NCBI RefSeq assembly: GCF_054482595.1
Contig: NZ_JBTHVH010000001.1
Direction: 5' to 3' (one strand)
From: a plasmid
Length of the DNA: 64,000 nt
Of the stretch, positions 1,924-60,097 are shown in pieces; within the stretch, counting starts at the first letter, position 1, and every line of letters starts with the position of its first letter. Both the position numbers and the translations under genes were made by a program. The notes beneath the pieces were generated by a model, which searched no databases, had not been told where the DNA came from, and saw nothing but the letters and a program-made list of their open reading frames with translations.

Positions 1924-1940
1924 TCTGCTCTAATAAATTT
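1924..1940 (+). promoter_or_regulatory. C1 operator (Op51-like) in front of immI module 1
   Basis: TCTGCTCTAATAAATTT, 15/17 to the remembered consensus ATTGCTCTAATAAATTT. Confidence 0.8.
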
Positions 1941-2127
1941 GTATTTTTAAGTCGCGAATGCTATCTTTTTGCATCATATTGACCTTTTAATCGTTCAGGC
2001 TTATAGTTTCGCCGTCGTAGCAAATTCTGCGACCGGGTTTAGCAGCCTGAATGATTGTGCGGACAGCCGCAGATATCCGATATTGCGGTATTTTTGTGTC
2101 CGTAAAACTGCGTTACGCCCAAATTAT

Positions 2128-2204
2128 GGTGGGGCGTGATGGGGAGGCTTCGGCCTGCTGGTTTCACAATCGCCAGTCTGCTAACCCCGTCACGTCCTGC
2201 CACC
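2128..2204 (+). ncRNA. c4: c4 antisense RNA of immI module 1 (77 nt)
   Basis: GGTGG...CCACC terminal stem, internal CTTCGG hairpin. Boxes a' CACAAT (2165-2170) and b' CTGCTAA (2178-2184) are complementary to ATTGTG at 2054 and 2238 and TTAGCAG at 2039 and 2208. The 77-nt span matches the published c4 size. Confidence 0.8.
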
Positions 2205-2254
2205 TGTTTAGCAGCGGGTAGCAGGTTGTTAAACCTGATTGTGAGGCCGTAACT

Positions 2255-2476
2255 ATGGTTAATGCCAATCCTTGCGCACGCCAAGAATTCATCTGGCGTT
2301 TCTATTCCTGCAAAAAACACCACTATCACTTCGTCATCGCAGCAACAGAAGACGAAGCACGCTCTCAATTGCCTGATGGCCCCTGCATTTTTACTGCCCG
2401 TTTTTCAACTAACTCGCGCAATTCACTTAGTTACTGGAACCTCCCCTTCTCTTCCGACGTTCAGGGGGTTTTATGA
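2255..2476 (+). CDS. icd: Icd (cell-division inhibitor, leader ORF of ant)
   Basis: 73 aa. RBS GAGG is immediately preceded by the c4 target ATTGTG. ATGA overlap with ant. Confidence 0.85.
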   Translation: MVNANPCARQEFIWRFYSCKKHHYHFVIAATEDEARSQLPDGPCIFTARFSTNSRNSLSYWNLPFSSDVQGVL

Positions 2477-3516
2477 AAAAACCTCTCGTCACCCGTAATG
2501 ACATAGCCGAAGCGATCGCACTGCATACTGCCTGTATGCCGACACGGGAGATCCCCGGCGCAATTGCCAACTATTTCATGATAACCAGACGTTTTTATAC
2601 CCGAACAGATAAGGCTGTGATCAACAGGCTACTGATAGCCGAGATCAGGGATTATTTGATTGAACAAGGACGTCTACGTTACGCAACGGTGGCAGCAGAA
2701 ATGAGAAAGGAGGCACATAGAATGACCAGTAATAATTTGAATGTTAAAAAACCAGCATCTGTTGCTTCAGCTACGCCATCACCAGCTGTGAATGTTATCT
2801 CCAACACTGGAGACACAATCGACAGCCAGACGCTGTTAAAGATGGTCAATGAAGCGCGTAAGTTATGTGGGGAACCAGAGGTTCGGAACAACAAATTCAT
2901 CAAAAAAATACTCGACGAATTAGAAGGTGAGGACGGTTACACAAAAAGTGCAACCGTGCCGCCAGGTGGCGGTACGCCTATGGTTGTCATAACCATGACC
3001 TACAAACAAGCCCTGCGAGTCGCCGCGCGCGAGTCAAAAGCAGTCCGCCGTTCGCTGATCGACAAACTGGAAGAATTGCAGCAGGCAAACTCCCCTGCCC
3101 CATCGATCCCCCAAACATTACCAGACGCTCTACGCCTGGCTGCCGAGTTGGCAGAACAGAAAATGCAGTTGGAACAACAGCTGGTGGCCGCAGCCCCTAA
3201 AGTCGATTTTGCCGACCGGGTATCAGCGGCTAATGGAATCCTGATCGGGAACTTTGCAAAGGTCGTTGGACTTAAGCAAAACGCCCTTTTCTCATGGTTG
3301 CGCCAGAACGGCATTCTCATGGCTTTTGGTGCGCGCAAAAACGTACCGCGCCAGCAGTACATTAACGCCGGGTATTTCACGGTGAAAGAAGTGGTGCTGG
3401 ATGATGAAAATGGCTACCAGATACGGCTGACGCCCCAATTAACGGGTAAAGGCCAGCAGTGGTTAACTCGCAAGCTACTTGATGCTGGTTTGTTAAAACC
3501 AGTAGCAATAGGTTAA
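2473..3516 (+). CDS. ant1: antirepressor Ant, module 1
   Basis: 347 aa. Central Rha-like segment and C-terminal KilAC-type domain (LPDALRLAAELAEQK...APKVDFADRV...GNFAKV) shared with KilA and the other two Ant copies. Confidence 0.85.
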   Translation: MKKPLVTRNDIAEAIALHTACMPTREIPGAIANYFMITRRFYTRTDKAVINRLLIAEIRDYLIEQGRLRYATVAAEMRKEAHRMTSNNLNVKKPASVASATPSPAVNVISNTGDTIDSQTLLKMVNEARKLCGEPEVRNNKFIKKILDELEGEDGYTKSATVPPGGGTPMVVITMTYKQALRVAARESKAVRRSLIDKLEELQQANSPAPSIPQTLPDALRLAAELAEQKMQLEQQLVAAAPKVDFADRVSAANGILIGNFAKVVGLKQNALFSWLRQNGILMAFGARKNVPRQQYINAGYFTVKEVVLDDENGYQIRLTPQLTGKGQQWLTRKLLDAGLLKPVAIG

Positions 3517-23858: not shown

Positions 23859-23934
23859 GATGGTGTAGCTCAGCGGTTAGAGCGGTTGACTGTTAATCAA
23901 CGGGTCGATGGTTCAAATCCATCCACCATCGCCA
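23859..23934 (+). tRNA. trnA: tRNA-Asn (GTT)
   Basis: Manual cloverleaf: acceptor GATGGTG/CACCATC, anticodon loop CTGTTAA, T-loop GGTTCAAATCC, encoded CCA. Confidence 0.9.
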
Positions 23935-23936
23935 AT

Positions 23937-24012
23937 GCCGGTTTAGCTCAGTTGGTAGAGCGCCTGCCTTGTAAGCAGGATGTCAGCGGTTCGAGTCCGT
24001 TAATCGGCACCA
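23937..24012 (+). tRNA. trnT: tRNA-Thr (TGT)
   Basis: Acceptor GCCGGTT/AATCGGC (one G-T), anticodon loop CTTGTAA, T-loop GGTTCGAGTCC, encoded CCA. Confidence 0.9.
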
Positions 24013-25816: not shown

Positions 25817-25892
25817 GGCCCTTTAGCTCAGTGGTTAGAGCTGGCGACTCATAATCGCACGGTCACCGGTTCAAGTCCGGTAGGGGCCACCA
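25817..25892 (+). tRNA. tRNA with CAT anticodon (Met or lysidine-type Ile; the P1 counterpart is annotated trnI)
   Basis: Acceptor GGCCCTT/AGGGGCC, anticodon loop CTCATAA, T-loop GGTTCAAGTCC, CCA. Confidence 0.85.
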
Positions 25893-49536: not shown

Positions 49537-50730
49537 GTGACCTGGGACGATCACAAGAAGAATTTTGCTCGCCTGGCGCGAGATGGTGGTTACACCATCG
49601 CACAGTATGCCGCCGAGTTTAATCTTAACCCTAATACTGCACGTCGTTATCTCCGTGCCTTCAAAGAAGACACCAGGACAGCGGACAGCCGCAAGCCAAA
49701 TAAGCCAGTCAGGAAGCCACTAAAAAGCATGATCATTGATCACTCTAATGATCAACATGCAGGTGATCACATTGCGGCTGAAATAGCGGAAAAACAAAGG
49801 GTTAATGCCGTTGTCAGTGCCGCAGTCGAGAATGCGAAGCGCCAAAATAAGCGCATAAATGATCGTTCTGATGATCATGACGTGATCACCCGCGCCCACC
49901 GGACCTTACGTGATCGCCTGGAACGCGACACCCTGGATGATGATGGTGAACGCTTTGAATTCGAAGCTGGCGATTACCTGATAGATAACGTTGAAGCGCG
50001 GAAGGCCGCTCGCGCTATGTTGCGTCGGTCCGGGGCCGATGTTCTGGAAACCACTCTTCTGGAAAAGTCTCTTTCTCATCTCCTTATGCTGGAGAACGCC
50101 AGGGATACGTGTATTCGTCTGGTGCAGGAAATGCGCGATCAGCAAAAAGACGATGATGAAGGGACTCCGCCTGAATATCGTATCGCGAGCATGCTAAACA
50201 GCTGTTCCGCGCAGATAAGCAGCCTGATCAACACCATTTACAGCATCCGGAATAACTATCGAAAAGAAAGCCGGGAGGCGGAAAAGCACGCTTTATCTAT
50301 GGGGCAAGCTGGCATTGTTAAGCTGGCATACGAACGAAAGCGTGAAAATAACTGGTCAGTGCTGGAAGCAGCTGAATTCATCGAGGCGCATGGCGGAAAA
50401 GTGCCGCCCCTGATGCTGGAGCAAATCAAAGCCGATCTGCGTGCTCCTAAGACCAATACCGATGATGAGGAAAGGCAAACAGCCGTCGGTGGCCCTTCTC
50501 TTGAAGATCTGGACAAAGTTGCGCGAGAACGGGCCGCCAACCGCCGCGCCGATGCCGCATTGTGGATTGAGCAGCGTAGGGAAGAAATCGCCGATATCGT
50601 TGATACAGGCGGTTATGGAGATGTTGATACTGAAGGTGCATCAAACGACCCATGGCTGGAACAAGACCTGGACGAAGACGAGGAGGAAGACGAAGAAGTT
50701 ACCCGCAAGCTATACGGGGATGATGATTAA
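49537..50730 (+). CDS. pacA: terminase (pacase) small subunit
   Basis: 397 aa, GTG start. Contains the pac site. Confidence 0.9.
49730..49888. other. pac: pac packaging site: 4 + 3 TGATCA/G hexamers
   Basis: Hexamers at 49730, 49737, 49749, 49764 and at 49860, 49872, 49883. Confidence 0.9.
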
Positions 50731-52214
50731 TGGCCAGAAGTTGCGTAACGGATCCACGTTGGCGCGAGCTGGTGGCGCTATATCGTTATGACTGGATTGC
50801 TGCCGCTGATGTTTTGTTCGGCAAAACACCTACCTGGCAGCAGGATCTGATTATTGAGTCTGTGCAGGAACAGGGTAGCAAGACATCTGTTTCGTCTGGT
50901 CACGGTACCGGGAAATCAGACATGACTTCTATCATGATCATGTTGTTCATAATCATGTATCCCGGTGCCCGCGCCATTATCGTTGCGAACAAAATTCAGC
51001 AGGTAATGACCGGTATATTCAAGTACATCAAGATAAACTGGGCTACTGCCACCAGCCGTTTTCCATGGCTTGCTGATTATTTTGTTCTGACAGAAACCGC
51101 TTTCTATGAGGTTACTGGTAAAGGTGTATGGACTGTAGTACCGAAGGGCTTTCGTCTGGGAAGTGAAGAAGCTCTCGCCGGTGAACACGCAGATCATCTT
51201 CTGTATATTATCGATGAAGCCTCCGGTGTCAGTGATAGAGCTTTCGGTATCATCACCGGTGCTCTTACCGGACAGGATAACCGCATCTTATTACTGTCAC
51301 AGCCTACACGCCCAAGCGGCTATTTCTACGATACTCATCATAAACTGGCCAAGCGTCCTGGTAACCCTGATGGCGTTTATACGGCGATCACGCTTAACAG
51401 TGAGGAATCACCGCTGGTAACGCCAGCATTTATCAAAATGAAGCTGGCGGAGTACGGCGGGCGCGATAACCCTATGTACATGATTAAGGTACGCGGCCTA
51501 TTCCCTAAATCACAGGATGGCTTCCTTCTTGGACGTGATGAGGTTGAACGTGCAACGCGGCGGAAAGTCAAGATTGCCAAAGGATGGGGCTGGCTTGCAT
51601 GTGTGGACGTTGCTGGTGGTACGGGAAGGGATAAGTCCGTTATCAATATCATGATGGTGTCCGGCCAGAGAAATAAACGCCGTGTAATCAACTATCGAAT
51701 GCTGGAATACACAGACGTTACAGAAACGCAGCTTGCCGCCAAAATTTTCGCAGAATGTAATCCTGAGCGATTCCCAAATATCACCATAGCGATAGACGGC
51801 GATGGGCTGGGTAAAGCAACAGCGGATCTGATGTACGAGTATTATGGTATTACCGTACAGCGTATACGCTGGGGTAAAAAGATGCATAGCCGTGAAGATA
51901 AGAGCCTGTACTTTGATAAACGTGCTTATGCCAACGTTCAAGCCGCAGAGGCCGTAAAATCTGGTCGTATGAGACTGGATAAGGGTAATGAAACTATTGA
52001 GGAAGCGTCGAAAATCCCTGTAGGGATTAACTCCGCAGGTCAATGGAAGGTGATGAGTAAGGAGGATATGAAGAAAAAACTCAACCTGCACTCACCAGAC
52101 CATTGGGATACATATTGTTTCGCTATGCTGGCGGATTATGTTCCCCAGGACGAAGTGCTTAGCGTCGAAGACGAAGCGCAGGTTGATGAAGCTCTGGCAT
52201 GGCTTAATGAATGA
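50730..52214 (+). CDS. pacB: terminase (pacase) large subunit
   Basis: 494 aa, ATG overlapping the pacA stop. Confidence 0.9.
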
Positions 52215-52217
52215 ACA

Positions 52218-52234
52218 TTTGCTCTAATAAATTG
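52218..52234 (+). promoter_or_regulatory. C1 operator in front of immI-like module 2
   Basis: TTTGCTCTAATAAATTG, 15/17, 4 nt after the pacB stop. Confidence 0.75.
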
Positions 52235-52417
52235 TGTTTTTTAACTACCGATGTTACATTGAACCTGACCTCTTGCGCCTTGAGGCATTTTCGGTTTATG
52301 CTTATCAGGCACCTCAGTAAAACGGGTGCCGGGATTGGCCTCCCGCTTAAGTCTAAGGCGATACAGACGCCGCTCGCGTCTTTTTTTTGTATCGGCGTAC
52401 ACGCACACCTCTACAAT

Positions 52418-52493
52418 GGTGGGCTGTATGGGGCTACCTTCGGGTAGGCTGGTTACCTTGGACGCCAGTAAGGCCAACTCCGTACAGTCCACC
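52418..52493 (+). ncRNA. c4-like antisense RNA, module 2 (76 nt, different recognition boxes)
   Basis: Same architecture as c4 (GGTGG...CCACC ends, CTTCGG hairpin). a' CCTTGGAC (52456) pairs with GTCTAAGG at 52351 and 52535. b' AGGCCAA (52471) pairs with TTGGCCT (52335) and TTGGTCT (52504). Confidence 0.65.
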
Positions 52494-52553
52494 GCCAGCA
52501 AGATTGGTCTCTTCTGCGGTGGTTACATACCAACGTCTAAGGAGGCTGCCAAT

Positions 52554-52775
52554 ATGGCTACTATCCCTACCCCAACTCATCCTGAATTTATCTGGCGCTT
52601 TTACTCCTGCCAAAAACGTCACTATCACTTCGTTATTGCACCGACAGAAGATGAGGCACGTTCTCAGCTTCCTGACGCCCCATGTATTTTCTCTGCCCGT
52701 TTTTCCACTGATTCACGCAATTCTCTCAGTTACTGGTGCCTCCCTGTTAACGCTTCTGCTCAGGAGGGACTATGA
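52554..52775 (+). CDS. Icd-like leader protein, module 2
   Basis: ATG 52554, 9 nt after AAGGAGG, which overlaps the a2 target. 73 aa, homologous to Icd from residue ~10. Confidence 0.75.
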   Translation: MATIPTPTHPEFIWRFYSCQKRHYHFVIAPTEDEARSQLPDAPCIFSARFSTDSRNSLSYWCLPVNASAQEGL

Positions 52776-53890
52776 GAACATCGTTAGTTACCCGTGAAGA
52801 GATGATCGAGGCAATTGAACAGCACACTGCCTGTATCAGTACCAGGGATATACCAGGCGTTATTGCCAACTACTTCATGATCACCAAACAACTTTACCGG
52901 AGAAAGGACAAGAACGCGGTTCACCGTATCCTGTTGTCTGATATCCGCGAATACCTGCTCGAACAGGGTCATCTGAATTACGCAACCGTCGCAGCCGAAT
53001 CACGCAAGGAGGCACACAGAATGAAAGCAACTAACGTTAAATCAGAAAAAATTCATGCACCTTCAGTTCAGGAATCGGAGCTGGTGGTTGTTCAGAATCA
53101 GTCTGATGAAATTCCCGTTCTGGAATGGCAGGGAGTGCGTGTAGTGACAACCGAGACTCTTGCTAGAGGGTATGGGACAGAAACAATCCGTATTCGCCAA
53201 AATCATCATGAGAACAAAGTACGCTTTGTTGAAGGGAAGCACTTTTTCAAAGTTGAAGGAGAATCATTGCGCGAGTTGAAGCACAGAGTAGCTTTAAACT
53301 ACTCTGTAAAAATTGCTCGCAATGTTCGCTCACTCACCCTCTGGACAGAACGCGGCGCAGCCCGCCACGCTAAAATGCTCGAAACCGATCAGGCATGGGC
53401 ATTCTTTGAAAAACTGGAAGACAGCTACTTCCGACAAAAAGAACAGCAACCGATCGCAATCCCCCAAACATTACCAGAAGCCCTACGCCTGGCTGCCGAA
53501 CTGGCTGAACAAAAGCAGCTTCTGGAACAGAAAGCCCACCAGCTAAATCAGCAGCTGGTGGCCGCCGCTCCTAAGGTCGATTTTGCCGACCGGGTATCAG
53601 TAGCTAAAGGGATCCTGATTGGGAATTTTGCAAAGGTTGTTGGACTTAAGCAAAACGCGCTGTTTGTCTGGTTACGGGAGAACGGCATCCTGATAGCGTC
53701 CGGTGGACGTAAAAATGTGCCGTTCCAGCAGTACATCAACGCGGGGTATTTCACGGTGAAAGAAGTGGTGCTGGATGATGAAGATGGCTACCAGATACGG
53801 TTGACGCCTCAATTAACGGGTAAAGGCCAGCAGTGGTTGACGCGTAAACTGCTCGATGCTGGCTTGTTAAAACCGGTGGCGGCTGAATAA
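52772..53890 (+). CDS. antirepressor Ant-like, module 2 (ORF6N/KilA-N-type central domain)
   Basis: 372 aa. N-terminal 85 aa and C-terminal KilAC region match module 3. The centre differs (VLEWQGVRVVTTETLARGYG...). Confidence 0.8.
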   Translation: MRTSLVTREEMIEAIEQHTACISTRDIPGVIANYFMITKQLYRRKDKNAVHRILLSDIREYLLEQGHLNYATVAAESRKEAHRMKATNVKSEKIHAPSVQESELVVVQNQSDEIPVLEWQGVRVVTTETLARGYGTETIRIRQNHHENKVRFVEGKHFFKVEGESLRELKHRVALNYSVKIARNVRSLTLWTERGAARHAKMLETDQAWAFFEKLEDSYFRQKEQQPIAIPQTLPEALRLAAELAEQKQLLEQKAHQLNQQLVAAAPKVDFADRVSVAKGILIGNFAKVVGLKQNALFVWLRENGILIASGGRKNVPFQQYINAGYFTVKEVVLDDEDGYQIRLTPQLTGKGQQWLTRKLLDAGLLKPVAAE

Positions 53891-53897
53891 TGGAAGA

Positions 53898-53926
53898 ATG
53901 CCCGGTTGATGCCGGGCATAATTTAT
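53898..53926. terminator. hairpin between convergent ant-like and c1 genes
   Basis: ATGCCCGG-TTGATG-CCGGGCAT. Confidence 0.6.
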
Positions 53927-54774
53927 TGCGCGCTTTCGGGGTTGTCGTTTACTGGCTGCCCCTTCTTGGTTTTACGGCTGCGCGTAACTGATGCGGCTGA
54001 CTTAACCTTTTTCTCTTCGCGAGTGATGGCAATTTGTTTTTTTACATTTTCAATATCTGCCAGGCGATATATTTTTGCTTGCGGCCAGCGGTCGCAGATG
54101 ATCGGTTCTATGGAGTCATAAAGGCTAAATTTTGCTTTTTCGAATTCACCGTTGATGATAATTCCATCACGGAGAGTTTCATCGCAGATAAACACGCCAC
54201 ACAGTGGCACATGGTAACTAACTGATTTACCATCATTGTAGTTAGGGCTACTGGAAATGTAGTGGACGCGCAGCATTGTTTCGCTAAAGCCGTGTACGCG
54301 CATACGGAATTTTTCATCCTCCGGGTACTGCCTCATTAGCTCTTTTGTTGCTTCCAGGTTCTCTATGTATTTCGCACTGTGCTCATTGATCCCCGCGCTT
54401 TTTTGGATGCGAATGTCCTTATCAATCAGATGAATAATGCGGCCAGCGGTCATGTTGACGCTGTTCACAGCTTCTGTCTGATAAGTTGTAACCTTGCGCA
54501 CACCGCGAAGGATGTTAGGCACTGGATATAAAATAGTCTTTGGGATATTGAGGTCTGGGTACTGTTCCAGTTCCCGCGCCATTAAAGTCCATTTATCAAT
54601 TTCAGCCTGAATGCTGTCTGTTTCTTTGAACGGTAGAACGACAACCGGGCGTACAGGACGACCGTCGCTGGCGGCATCAACGTGTTGGGCGCGTGCAACA
54701 GCTTTTTTTAGAAAGAGATCCCTGAAGCTGACGAACTCCTGGTACAGTTGTTCGCCGTAGACATAATTTATCAT
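53923..54774 (-). CDS. c1: C1 master repressor
   Basis: 283 aa. MINYVYGEQLYQEFVSFRDLFLKK... as I recall for P1 C1. Confidence 0.9.
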   Translation of the reverse strand: MINYVYGEQLYQEFVSFRDLFLKKAVARAQHVDAASDGRPVRPVVVLPFKETDSIQAEIDKWTLMARELEQYPDLNIPKTILYPVPNILRGVRKVTTYQTEAVNSVNMTAGRIIHLIDKDIRIQKSAGINEHSAKYIENLEATKELMRQYPEDEKFRMRVHGFSETMLRVHYISSSPNYNDGKSVSYHVPLCGVFICDETLRDGIIINGEFEKAKFSLYDSIEPIICDRWPQAKIYRLADIENVKKQIAITREEKKVKSAASVTRSRKTKKGQPVNDNPESAQ

Positions 54775-55927: not shown

Positions 55928-56959
55928 ATGTCCAATTTACTGACCGTACACCAAAATTTGCCTGCATTACCGGTCGATGCAACGAGTGATGAGGTTCGCA
56001 AGAACCTGATGGACATGTTCAGGGATCGCCAGGCGTTTTCTGAGCATACCTGGAAAATGCTTCTGTCCGTTTGCCGGTCGTGGGCGGCATGGTGCAAGTT
56101 GAATAACCGGAAATGGTTTCCCGCAGAACCTGAAGATGTTCGCGATTATCTTCTATATCTTCAGGCGCGCGGTCTGGCAGTAAAAACTATCCAGCAACAT
56201 TTGGGCCAGCTAAACATGCTTCATCGTCGGTCCGGGCTGCCACGACCAAGTGACAGCAATGCTGTTTCACTGGTTATGCGGCGGATCCGAAAAGAAAACG
56301 TTGATGCCGGTGAACGTGCAAAACAGGCTCTAGCGTTCGAACGCACTGATTTCGACCAGGTTCGTTCACTCATGGAAAATAGCGATCGCTGCCAGGATAT
56401 ACGTAATCTGGCATTTCTGGGGATTGCTTATAACACCCTGTTACGTATAGCCGAAATTGCCAGGATCAGGGTTAAAGATATCTCACGTACTGACGGTGGG
56501 AGAATGTTAATCCATATTGGCAGAACGAAAACGCTGGTTAGCACCGCAGGTGTAGAGAAGGCACTTAGCCTGGGGGTAACTAAACTAGTCGAGCGATGGA
56601 TTTCTGTCTCTGGTGTGGCTGATGATCCGAATAACTACTTGTTTTGCCGTGTCAGAAAAAATGGCGTAGCTGCGCCATCTGCCACCAGCCAGCTATCAAC
56701 TCGCGCCCTGGAAGGGATTTTTGAAGCAACTCATCGATTGATTTACGGCGCTAAGGATGACTCTGGTCAGAGATACCTGGCCTGGTCTGGACACAGTGCC
56801 CGTGTCGGAGCCGCGCGAGATATGGCCCGCGCCGGAGTTTCAATACCGGAGATCATGCAAGCTGGTGGCTGGACCAACGTAAATATTGTCATGAACTATA
56901 TCCGTAACCTGGATAGTGAAACAGGGGCAATGGTGCGCCTGCTGGAAGATGGCGATTAG
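55928..56959 (+). CDS. cre: Cre tyrosine recombinase
   Basis: 343 aa. MSNLLTVHQNLPALPVDATSDEVRKNLMDMFRDRQAFSEHTWKMLLSVCRSWAAWCKLNN... Confidence 0.98.
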   Translation: MSNLLTVHQNLPALPVDATSDEVRKNLMDMFRDRQAFSEHTWKMLLSVCRSWAAWCKLNNRKWFPAEPEDVRDYLLYLQARGLAVKTIQQHLGQLNMLHRRSGLPRPSDSNAVSLVMRRIRKENVDAGERAKQALAFERTDFDQVRSLMENSDRCQDIRNLAFLGIAYNTLLRIAEIARIRVKDISRTDGGRMLIHIGRTKTLVSTAGVEKALSLGVTKLVERWISVSGVADDPNNYLFCRVRKNGVAAPSATSQLSTRALEGIFEATHRLIYGAKDDSGQRYLAWSGHSARVGAARDMARAGVSIPEIMQAGGWTNVNIVMNYIRNLDSETGAMVRLLEDGD

Positions 56960-57549: not shown

Positions 57550-58602
57550 TCATTCAGCCGCCACCGGTTTTAACAAGCCAGCATCAAGTAGCTTGCGAGT
57601 CAACCACTGCTGGCCTTTACCCGTTAATTGGGGCGTCAGCCGTATCTGGTAGCCATTTTCATCATCCAGCACCACTTCTTTCACCGTGAAATACCCGGCG
57701 TTGATGTACTGTTGGCGCGGTACGTTTTTGCGCGCACCAAAAGCCATGAGAATGCCGTTCTGGCGCAACCATGAGAAAAGGGCGTTTTGCTTCAGTCCAA
57801 CGACCTTTGCAAAGTTCCCGATCAGGATTCCATTAGCCACTGATACCCGAACGGCAAAATCGACTTTAGGGGCTGCGGCCACCAGCTGCTGATTTAGCTG
57901 GTGGGCTTTCTGTTCCAGAAGTTGCTTTTGTTCAGCCAGCTCGGCAGCCAGGCGCAGAGCTTCGGGGAGTGTTTGGGGGAGCACTGGAGAAGCAGTGTTA
58001 GCCTGCTGCAATTCCTCCAGTTTGTCGATCAGCGAACGGCGGACCGCTTTTGACTCGCGCGCGGCAACTCGCAGGGCTTGTTTGTAGGTCATGGAGATAG
58101 TTTCAGATGTTGTGTTGTTTAATTTTTGCACTACGAAAATTTCGTAGTACTCACCATCCAGTTCATCCTTAACTCTGGCAATAAAATCATTATTGCGAAC
58201 TGGTTTTTCGCTGCATAATTTCCGCGCTTCATTGACCATCTTCAACAATGTTTGGCTGTCTATTGTGTCGCCGCTGTTGGGGATAACATTCACGGCTGGT
58301 GCAGTTGTTCCCAAAGACTTCGTAACTACAGCGTCTGGTTTGCTTGCTTTCATTCTGTGTGCCTCCTTGCGTGTTTCGGCTGCGACGGTTGCGTAATTCA
58401 GATGCCCCTGTTCGAGCAGGTATTCACGGATATCGGTTAGCAGAATGCGGTGAACCGCGTGTTTGTCCTTTCTCCGGTAAAGTTGTTTGGTGATCATGAA
58501 GTAGTTGGCAATAACGCCTGGTATATCCCTGGTACTGATACAGGCAGTGTGCTGTTCAATTGCCTCGATCATCTCTTCACGGGTGACTAATGACGTTCTC
58601 AT
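57550..58602 (-). CDS. antirepressor Ant-like, module 3
   Basis: 350 aa. Centre and C-terminus resemble module 1; the N-terminus resembles module 2. Confidence 0.8.
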   Translation of the reverse strand: MRTSLVTREEMIEAIEQHTACISTRDIPGVIANYFMITKQLYRRKDKHAVHRILLTDIREYLLEQGHLNYATVAAETRKEAHRMKASKPDAVVTKSLGTTAPAVNVIPNSGDTIDSQTLLKMVNEARKLCSEKPVRNNDFIARVKDELDGEYYEIFVVQKLNNTTSETISMTYKQALRVAARESKAVRRSLIDKLEELQQANTASPVLPQTLPEALRLAAELAEQKQLLEQKAHQLNQQLVAAAPKVDFAVRVSVANGILIGNFAKVVGLKQNALFSWLRQNGILMAFGARKNVPRQQYINAGYFTVKEVVLDDENGYQIRLTPQLTGKGQQWLTRKLLDAGLLKPVAAE

Positions 58603-58820
58603 AGTCCCTCCTGAGCAGAAGCGTTAACAGGGAGGCACCAGTAACTGAGAGAATTGCGCAAATCGGTAGAAAAGCGGGCAGAGAAAATACAGGGAGCATC
58701 CGGAAGCTGAGAACGTGCCTCATCTTCTGTTGGTGCGATAACGAAGTGATAGTGACGTTTCTGGCAGGAGTAAAAGCGCCAGATAAATTCAGGGCGTGCG
58801 CAAGGATTGGCATTAACCAT
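58599..58820 (-). CDS. Icd-like leader protein, module 3
   Basis: 73 aa. MVNANPCARPEFIWRFYSC... Confidence 0.8.
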   Translation of the reverse strand: MVNANPCARPEFIWRFYSCQKRHYHFVIAPTEDEARSQLPDAPCIFSARFSTDLRNSLSYWCLPVNASAQEGL

Positions 58821-58870
58821 AGTTACGGCCTCATGTACAGGTTTAACAACCTGCTATCCGCTGCTAAACG

Positions 58871-58947
58871 GGTGGCAGGACGTGACGGGGTTAGCAGACT
58901 GGCGTACATGAAACCAGCAGGCCGAAGCCTCCCCATCACGCCCCACC
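58871..58947 (-). ncRNA. c4-like antisense RNA, module 3 (77 nt; a' box CATGTA instead of CACAAT)
   Basis: Near-identical to c4 of module 1 except the a' hexamer. Both targets are changed to TACATG (forward-strand coordinates 59016-59021 and 58832-58837). Confidence 0.75.
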
Positions 58948-59121
58948 ATAATTCGGGCGTAACGTGGTTTTACGGACACAAAAATACCGCAATATCGGAT
59001 ATCTGCGGTTGTCCGCATGTACATTCAGGCTGCTAAACCCGGTCGCAGAATTTGCTACGACGGCGGAACTATAAGCCTGAATGACAGGAAGATCAATAGT
59101 CTGGCGTTCAATGGTAGTATT

Positions 59122-59154
59122 TTTGCTCCAATAAATCAAATCTATTAGAGCAAT
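59122..59154 (-). promoter_or_regulatory. bipartite C1 operator between module 3 and the MBL-fold gene
   Basis: Reverse strand ATTGCTCTAATAGATTT (16/17) at 59138-59154, plus weak TTTGCTCCAATAAATCA at 59122-59138. Confidence 0.7.
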
Positions 59155-59296: not shown

Positions 59297-60097
59297 ATGT
59301 CCGTGACCATTAGCGTCCTGCTGGAAAACAGACTTAAGCTTGGAGTTAAAAACTCGCTGCGTGCTAAAGCAGGACTTAGTCTGTTGATACAGGATGAAAA
59401 CGATTCAATCCTGTTTGATACTGGGCCTGATGATAGCTTCATGTATAACGCAGGTTTAATGGGGGTCGATTTGACAAAACTGACCGCAGTTGTACTTTCC
59501 CATGGTCACTATGACCACTGCGGAGGTGTTCCGTGGATACCAGACACATGCAGGATAATATGCCATCCTATGGTGTCGGATGAGCGCTATTCGGCAATCA
59601 GGTTTTTAGGCTATACCGCCAGAATAAAAAAATTATCATTACATAATGATTTTTCACGTTTCCGCATGGAATACAGCAACACACCATTGCATATCAGTGA
59701 GCGTTTTATGTGGTCAGGAGAGATCCCTGTTGCCAGGCCACGCGCTTACGGTGTTATCGGGTGTAAGAATACGAAAGAAGATTACGTAAAAGATGAGGGG
59801 GTTTTAATTTATAAATCAGACTATGGGTTGATCATTTTTATCGGTTGTGGTCATTGCGGGGTAATTGATATTGTGCGCCACTGCCAAAATATAACCGGGA
59901 TAAATCATATTCATGCAATTTTTGGTGGTCTTCATCTGCGCTGTGCGTCCCCTCTTATGCTCTGGAAGGTGAGACAGTTCTTACGCCTTCATAAACCAGA
60001 TAAGATAATGGGGTGTCATTGTACTGGCAAATGGGGACGCTTGTGGTTACCGGAATCAACCTCTCCGGCAACAGGTGATGTTTATGTTCTTGGATAG
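59297..60097 (+). CDS. metallo-beta-lactamase-fold hydrolase
   Basis: HGHYDHCGG (HxHxDH) motif, with downstream His/Cys/Asp ligand candidates. 266 aa. Confidence 0.75.
   Translation: MSVTISVLLENRLKLGVKNSLRAKAGLSLLIQDENDSILFDTGPDDSFMYNAGLMGVDLTKLTAVVLSHGHYDHCGGVPWIPDTCRIICHPMVSDERYSAIRFLGYTARIKKLSLHNDFSRFRMEYSNTPLHISERFMWSGEIPVARPRAYGVIGCKNTKEDYVKDEGVLIYKSDYGLIIFIGCGHCGVIDIVRHCQNITGINHIHAIFGGLHLRCASPLMLWKVRQFLRLHKPDKIMGCHCTGKWGRLWLPESTSPATGDVYVLG

Follow-up and report, generated by a model that had tools for sequence, protein, structure and literature searches.

An immI-like module with its own antisense code between pacB and c1 of a P1-like phage-plasmid

The textbook example of immunity specificity set by a small antisense RNA comes from phages P1 and P7, and P1-like plasmids often carry resistance genes in E. 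coli. Here we describe a 64 kb stretch of plasmid DNA (contig NZ_JBTHVH010000001.1 of assembly GCF_054482595.1; hereafter the window), which is a P1-like (Punavirus) phage-plasmid. Between pacB and c1 it holds a 1708 bp cassette (52215-53922) that is a complete immI-like module, which looks real and intact. Most probably, the cassette works as a second P1-type immI switch, in which a C4-type RNA keeps an Icd-like protein and an antirepressor (Ant) untranslated. It is a paralogous module and not immI itself, because it lies between pacB and c1, whereas immI of P1 and P7 lies between sim and kilA-repL, and because the true immI, termed module 1, is found at ~1924-3516 of the window, where it adjoins kilA and repL.

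Comparison of the window with reference P1 revealed that the homology stops at the stop codon of pacB and restarts at the stop codon of c1, the cassette taking the place of the P1 spacer. In reference P1, the two stop codons are separated by only 24 bp and the cassette is absent; P7 likewise lacks it in this slot. A preliminary description of this DNA had stated that pacB is directly followed by c1 in P1, which proved correct, and its doubt as to whether the cassette might be standard there was dispelled by the 24 bp spacer. All the motifs it named were found at the positions it gave. Its terms “extra” and “inserted” hold relative to P1 and P7, but not for natural P1-like plasmids in general, about half of which fill the slot.

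The RNA gene of the cassette matches the Rfam C4 family with a score of 75.9 bits against a threshold of 45, over model positions 1-87 at 52412-52499. The 76-nt RNA adopts the C4 shape with a folding energy of -40.1 kcal/mol (z = -4.26), and its minimum free energy (MFE) structure equals the centroid, so that the c4-like shape noted in the preliminary description is backed by both the covariance model and the fold. A long terminal stem surrounds two hairpins, and the loop of hairpin-2 and the linker are both unpaired. These two segments, the loop box and the linker box, are each complementary to one target 5' and one target 3' of the RNA gene, and the four box-target pairs occupy positions homologous to a1, b1, a2 and b2 of P1. 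We use the terms loop box and linker box because the labels a and b of the preliminary description, which had the boxes themselves right, are the reverse of those in the P1 GenBank record, which gives the name a to the linker-box target and b to the target of the hairpin-loop box, the one at the icd ribosome-binding site. In the whole 64 kb, on both strands, GTCTAAGG occurs at two sites only (52351 and 52535). The loop box pairs with both, as had been proposed, and both pairings are better than those of shuffled sequences; on the downstream target it forms nine pairs at -13.9 kcal/mol, and 7 of 1000 shuffles were as good. Altogether, three of the four box-target pairs surpass dinucleotide shuffles (7 to 37 of 1000 as good). 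As also described earlier, the second loop-box target (52535-52542) overlaps the AAGGAGG motif (52539-52545) of the icd-like open reading frame (ORF).

The window has three Rfam C4 RNAs, at 2122-2207 (+), 52412-52499 (+) and 58868-58953 (-), among which the cassette copy scores highest. Compared to the P1 and P7 reference records, module 1 bears the exact P7 code, with the loop box CACAATC and the linker box CTGCTAA, versus CACTAAC and CTGTCAA in P1. Module 2, on the minus strand near cre, combines a loop box unlike those of P1 and P7 (CATGTAC) with the linker box of P7 and module 1 (CTGCTAA). Duplex energies summed over both boxes and both target regions are strongest for the cognate combination in every row of the 3x3 matrix: -36.8, -37.2 and -45.6 kcal/mol for module 1, module 2 and the cassette (module 3), respectively, compared to -17.9 to -30.0 kcal/mol for all cross combinations. 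The cassette RNA reaches -30.0 and -28.4 kcal/mol on the targets of modules 1 and 2, whose RNAs reach -19.8 and -17.9 kcal/mol on the cassette targets. The loop box of the cassette is clearly orthogonal to the targets of the other modules, with -12.4 and -13.9 kcal/mol on its own targets against -5.3 to -6.9 kcal/mol on the others. Both boxes match only the targets of the cassette; therefore, its immunity specificity should be independent of the other two c4 modules. The claim of a third orthogonal specificity in this genome thus stands for the cassette, but not between modules 1 and 2, which have the linker box in common and are therefore only half-orthogonal.

Matched variation of boxes and targets was then seen among relatives. 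An Icd-based scan gave 80 loci from IMG/VR and seven from genome contigs, to which the P1 and P7 references were added; the search of genome contigs with the Icd alignment yielded these seven loci only and added little diversity. Of the 80 related loci, 37 have a GGTAG/GAAA variant of the C4 scaffold and escaped a strict regular expression (GGTGG...CTTCGG...CCACC), in place of which a hairpin-2 pattern anchored on the icd gene was used. All loci combined, references included, show 13 code types on two scaffolds. In every code type, the loop box and the linker box are each complementary to both of their own targets, at fixed positions, and every box keeps at least six contiguous pairs in 45 of the 46 distinct sequence contexts. 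When energies were computed for all 13x13 combinations, the cognate one was lowest in 13/13 rows and 13/13 columns, with a mean of -39 kcal/mol versus -22 kcal/mol for combinations without a shared box. The P1 scaffold carries at least five loop boxes and at least two linker boxes, and the isrK scaffold at least three of each; since these alleles occur in several combinations, the two boxes appear to reassort. Contigs other than the window also bear two or three different codes. Computational as it is, this matched variation provides the strongest argument for selection on the pairings, and suggests that codes evolve by exchange of the two short boxes together with their targets.

Upstream of the C4-type RNA, the cassette has an operator-like site, two candidate promoters and a leader RNA. 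The operator-like site TTTGCTCTAATAAATTG matches the C1 operator consensus ATTGCTCTAATAAATTT at 15 of 17 positions, and the window has 15 such sites with at most three mismatches against 0.28 expected by chance. The candidate operator lies 117 nt from the first target box, compared to 115 nt between Oc4 and a1 in P1. The putative promoter at 52231-52259 aligns with P2c4 of P1 (formerly P51a; TTGTAT-17-TATCTT) and that at 52273-52302 with P1c4 (formerly P51b; TTGACC-17-TATAGT); the -10 hexamer of the latter candidate ends 7 nt ahead of the first base of the isrK match. In the window and in three further loci scanned (L094, 3018-3094; L095, 2993-3069; L002, 4093-4171), the isrK match always lies directly 5' of the C4 match and contains both target boxes. 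This arrangement suggests that isrK is the positional and functional counterpart, for the second scaffold class, of c4-a1b1, which holds the a1 and b1 targets of P1. The Rfam clan CL00128 consists of C4 and c4-a1b1, isrK not being listed, and the link between the isrK leader and the P1 a1/b1 targets is drawn neither in the paper on the Gifsy-1 isrK locus (PMC4825925) nor in a 2025 review of small RNAs.

The ORFs of the cassette are all intact. Pfam search on the cassette Ant revealed an ANT/KilAC domain at residues 260-361 (E = 4.5e-31) and an ORF6N domain at residues 116-202 (E = 2e-19). It shares 56% identity with Ant1 of P1, the N-terminal 84 and the C-terminal 140 residues being conserved; the latter are over 90% identical to those of P1 Ant, and the Ant1-specific N-terminus is kept. 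The middle differs, as it consists of the ORF6N domain, which P1 Ant1 lacks. The nested start has the same offset as the ant2 start of P1, which lies 249 nt into ant1. The features of the cassette and of its surroundings are listed in Table 1.

Table 1. Coordinates of the cassette, its flanking genes and module 2 in the window
Feature	Position	Strand	Remarks
pacA	49537-50730		
pacB	50730-52214		
C1-operator-like site TTTGCTCTAATAAATTG	52218-52234	+	three bases past the pacB stop; C1 binding predicted only
Putative weak promoter TTGTGT-17-TACATT	52231-52259	+	sequence reading; overlaps the operator-like site
Putative main promoter TTGCGC-18-TATGCT	52273-52302	+	from alignment
isrK-type leader RNA	52309-52386	+	Rfam isrK RF01394, 60 bits, threshold 50
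Leader linker-box target TTGGCCT	52335-52341	+	
Leader loop-box target GTCTAAGG	52351-52358	+	
Leader intrinsic terminator	stem 52365-52381	+	followed by an eight-T run; terminator scan
C4-type antisense RNA, GGTGG...CCACC	52418-52493	+	76 nt; Rfam C4 RF01695
Loop box (hairpin-2) CCTTGGAC	52456-52463	+	
Linker box AGGCCAA	52471-52477	+	single-stranded
Downstream linker-box target TTGGTCT	52504-52510	+	
Downstream loop-box target (C)GTCTAAGG	52534-52542	+	overlaps the Shine-Dalgarno sequence
Shine-Dalgarno sequence AAGGAGG of the icd-like ORF	52539-52545	+	
Icd-like ORF, 73 aa	52554-52775	+	NCBIfam NF033153 (phage_ICD_like), 49.8 bits, cut-off 25
Ant1-like antirepressor, 372 aa	52772-53890	+	start overlaps the icd stop (ATGA, 52772-52775)
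Nested Ant2-like start ATG	53021 (codon 84)	+	AAGGAGG at 53006
Hairpin between converging ant and c1, likely terminator	53898-53919	+	scan: 9 pairs, 6 G-C; weak T tail
c1	53923-54774	-	
cre	55928-56959		
Module 2, complete c4-icd-ant	57550-59154	-	just past cre
Module 2 operator-like site	59138-59154	-	
Module 2 c4-a1b1 targets	59022-59074	-	
Module 2 C4 RNA	58868-58953	-	
Module 2 icd	58599-58820	-	
Module 2 ant, 350 aa	57550-58602	-	

Compared to immI of P1 and P7, the cassette has the same order and spacing of parts: an operator (in the cassette, an operator-like site), two promoters (in the cassette, candidates), two upstream targets and a terminator-like hairpin, followed by a 76-77-nt C4 RNA, two downstream targets, of which that of the loop box covers the icd ribosome-binding site, the ATGA overlap of icd and ant, and the nested Ant2 start at codon 84, with the termini of Ant conserved. 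The differences, besides the genomic location, reside in the RNA scaffold and both boxes, the leader (matching Rfam isrK, compared to c4-a1b1 in the P1 type), the Shine-Dalgarno sequence (AAGGAGG versus GAGG), the first nine codons of icd and the ORF6N domain in the middle of Ant. To judge by sequence, the RNA part of the cassette is of the isrK/C4 type and not a diverged P1 c4.

The isrK-STnc1160-orf45-anrP locus of Gifsy-1, on whose leader the Rfam isrK family is based, resembles the cassette in several respects. As judged from the Rfam isrK match and the description of that locus (PMC4825925), both have a leader of the same family with a terminator and read-through, an RNA of ~80 nt processed from the region 3' of the leader and complementary to it, and a small ORF coupled to an antirepressor, the last two being predicted for the cassette. 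In Gifsy-1, the ~80-nt processed RNA (STnc1160) and the coupled translation of orf45 and anrP were shown experimentally, and IsrK supplied in trans activates the translation of orf45-anrP (PMC4825925). Hershko-Shalev et al. (2016) explained the locus by IsrK-driven refolding of the mRNA and compared STnc1160 with the CI RNA of P4, which acts by premature transcription termination; neither phage P1 nor c4 is mentioned in their paper, and the binding of Hfq and the trans-activation of downstream ORFs by the short RNA were shown for Salmonella only (PMC4825925). By contrast to Gifsy-1, the cassette has a 73-residue Icd-like protein instead of orf45 and a P1 Ant-like antirepressor, and belongs to a C1-regulated plasmid prophage.

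Related RNA units are also found in other mobile elements. A P4-like satellite in the chromosome of E. coli ECONIH1 shares the C4 scaffold and the linker box AAGGCCAA with the cassette, the loop box and its targets being almost the sole difference. In more than 150 Stx-converting lambdoid phages (e.g. P13374), a unit of ~79% identity stands ahead of a Rha-family regulator and antirepressors; its ribosome-binding site and first five codons, in the start AAGGAGGCTGCCAxTATGGCTACTATCCC, are the same as in the cassette. The downstream genes differ, being Icd-like and primase genes in the satellites and those of the Rha-family regulator and antirepressors in the Stx phages, and the units of both lack a C1 operator, whereas the cassette has an operator-like site. 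The Icd-like protein of the cassette is 88% identical to that of module 2, from which it differs only in seven of the first nine residues and in residue 54. Because of this pattern, and because the RNA is akin to the units of satellites and Stx phages, the cassette can be read as a mosaic, in which an isrK/C4 lock was probably joined near codon 10 of icd to a P1-type icd-ant.

Two observations bear on this junction. The transition from isrK-type to P1-type sequence lies inside icd at about codon 10, as seen by comparing 52554-52580 with 58794-58820 on the minus strand. In addition, the ribosome-binding site and the codons for MATIP are common to icd of the cassette and the Rha-family gene of P13374 (L096, ~2030-2060). 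Apparently, the lock moves together with the beginning of the gene under its control, whichever gene that is.

We propose for the cassette the mechanism of P1, because the functional notes of the P1 record and the Gifsy-1 isrK locus support it by analogy. Transcription would start near 52309, 3' of the C1-operator-like site, and most transcripts would end at the leader terminator, giving an isrK-like RNA of ~78 nt with one copy of each target box. Read-through transcripts would contain the C4-type RNA, which would then be excised; in P1, the excision of C4 is performed by RNase P. The hairpin loop CCUUGGAC(G) is predicted to pair with (C)GUCUAAGG over the Shine-Dalgarno sequence of the icd-like ORF, and the linker AGGCCAA with UUGGUCU, 30 nt upstream of the loop-box target. 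Blocking the translation of icd in this manner would also block the overlapping and coupled ant. Once the cognate RNA is missing or titrated, Ant would be made and might inactivate the C1 repressor, by analogy with Ant1/Ant2 of P1. The C4 RNAs of P1 and P7 act in trans and set heteroimmunity (PMC12197685; notes of the P1 record), and the RNA of the cassette may similarly repress in trans.

Several points weigh against this reading. Of the two linker-box pairings in the preliminary description, that of AGGCCAA with TTGGCCT is better than shuffles, but that with TTGGTCT downstream, taken alone, is not (390 of 1000 as good); we accept the latter because of its position and the matched variation, not because of the shuffle test. 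Both promoter candidates are weak matches that fall under the threshold of the consensus scan. The leader scores only 20.5 bits against Rfam c4-a1b1 (RF03163; threshold 46.7), and the c4-a1b1 type was thus rejected for it; modules 1 and 2 exceed the threshold, at 54.6 and 55.5 bits. The boxes of the cassette are GC-rich, with non-cognate energies of -28 to -34 kcal/mol, so that orthogonality in vivo is not guaranteed. Moreover, the middle of Ant is replaced by ORF6N, so its target could differ from C1.

An MFE fold of the read-through transcript (52309-52575) pairs the upstream boxes (GUCUAAGG and UUGGCCU) in cis with the loop and linker boxes of the C4 segment and leaves the downstream ribosome-binding region mostly open. 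This model hints that the unprocessed transcript may be self-inhibited as a repressor, and the predicted cis pairing fits a decoy role for the leader.

The same fold agrees with an IsrK-type control, which we consider possible but doubtful: the terminated leader RNA would be the active regulator in trans, an activator or decoy that frees the ribosome-binding site, and the C4 segment would act chiefly in cis rather than as a diffusible immunity repressor. The leader is a bona fide member of the isrK family at 60 bits, and the activation of orf45-anrP by Gifsy-1 IsrK in trans (PMC4825925) argues in the same direction. However, the boxes of the leader are identical, not complementary, to the downstream boxes, so any IsrK-type action would need the same pairing with C4 and would amount to a variant of the P1-type mechanism. 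The trans activity of the P1 and P7 C4 RNAs in heteroimmunity (PMC12197685) also speaks for a diffusible repressor, and the matched variation includes the downstream as well as the upstream targets.

Alternatively, the Ant of the cassette might be aimed at the repressors of other prophages or satellites in the cell and not at its own C1, much as AnrP acts on the antQ operon of Gifsy-1; the cassette would then serve as an inter-element weapon outside P1 immunity. The ORF6N domain in the centre of Ant, absent from P1 Ant1, would suit this possibility, as would the closely related RNA units that P4-like satellites and Stx phages have ahead of other, unrelated genes. Nevertheless, we regard it as improbable in view of the nearly unchanged C-terminal 140 residues, the conserved Ant1-specific N-terminus, the C1-operator-like site at the head of the cassette and the adjoining c1. 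That the cassette is an inert recombination relic hitchhiking in a variable region is very improbable indeed: P1 and P7 manage without it and its sequence joins isrK-type and P1-type parts, but its ORFs are all intact, it exists in hundreds of conserved copies, and five code alleles of the slot each show full box-target complementarity, which drift would not preserve.

Natural P1-like plasmids commonly have the cassette, which had been sequenced before and is not a new kind of system. It stands at the same position in phages RCS47, vB_EcoM-673R5 and JL22. Intact and conserved, it is also present in 290 PLSDB plasmids (at least 80% coverage), compared to 558 with pacB, and among 5426 complete E. 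coli genomes it occurs in 278. The 40-nt code of the window was found without change in 131 genomes, nearly always on plasmids of ~90-120 kb. Across its variants, the pacB-c1 slot bears at least five isrK-scaffold codes, and the C1-operator-like site is retained in most of them. Venturini et al. (2019) reported that ant and “two short hypothetical orfs” separate pacB from c1, the arrangement of RCS47, and that icd-ant homologues lie near cre, with the RNA unmentioned (PMC6906374). Our literature searches turned up no account of a c4-type RNA between pacB and c1, nor of a P1-like genome with several c4 modules; the insertion of ant and the two ORFs was all they yielded for the slot.

These findings indicate that wild P1-like plasmids often stack several antisense locks with different codes, and that two reassorting boxes appear to set immunity specificity. 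The box codes might thus offer a simple and testable means of predicting whether two P1-like elements will coexist, exclude one another or induce one another. A broader view, speculative and rather unlikely as it stands, is that P1-like phage-plasmids carry up to three independent C4-antirepressor locks with reassorting boxes, a combinatorial immunity barcode shaped by competition among related elements, and that the RNA lock is a portable unit across P1-like plasmids, P4-like satellites, Stx-converting phages and Gifsy-1. If so, shared boxes, such as AAGGCCAA, common to the cassette and chromosomal P4-like satellites, could allow unrelated elements in one cell to repress or release the antirepressors of one another.

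A cassette 100% identical to that of the window was found in the 5.2 Mb chromosome of E. coli APEC17 (NZ_CP178203.1; L093), where its flanks are P1-like (phd/doc, lpa, pacAB, c1 and cre); either a P1-like element is integrated there, or the sequences were joined in assembly. Two short contigs of a metagenome-assembled genome named ‘Bacillota bacterium OH_SBlB_19’ (L086 and L087) encode Icd-like proteins 96% and 81% identical to those of E. coli P1-like elements, and are probably mis-binned. A protein-coding reading of the RNA region was rejected, since neither Pfam nor NCBIfam supports any of the ORFs that overlap the three C4 genes or lie antisense to them. In RefSeq (PGAP), the C4 RNA gene (52416-52529 in the window; 6202-6315 in L093) is labeled as a pseudogene fragment of an ‘ash family protein’, as is the exact 40-nt code in nearly all of the 30 matches listed, which looks like a systematic mis-annotation of the RNA gene. 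A 266-residue ORF (59297-60097, +) with a metallo-beta-lactamase-like HxHxDH motif (HGHYDHCGG) adjoins module 2, in a variable region that holds res-mod in P1. Elsewhere in the window, Rfam search gave three tRNA genes, at 23859-24009 and 25817-25889; P1 itself bears three.

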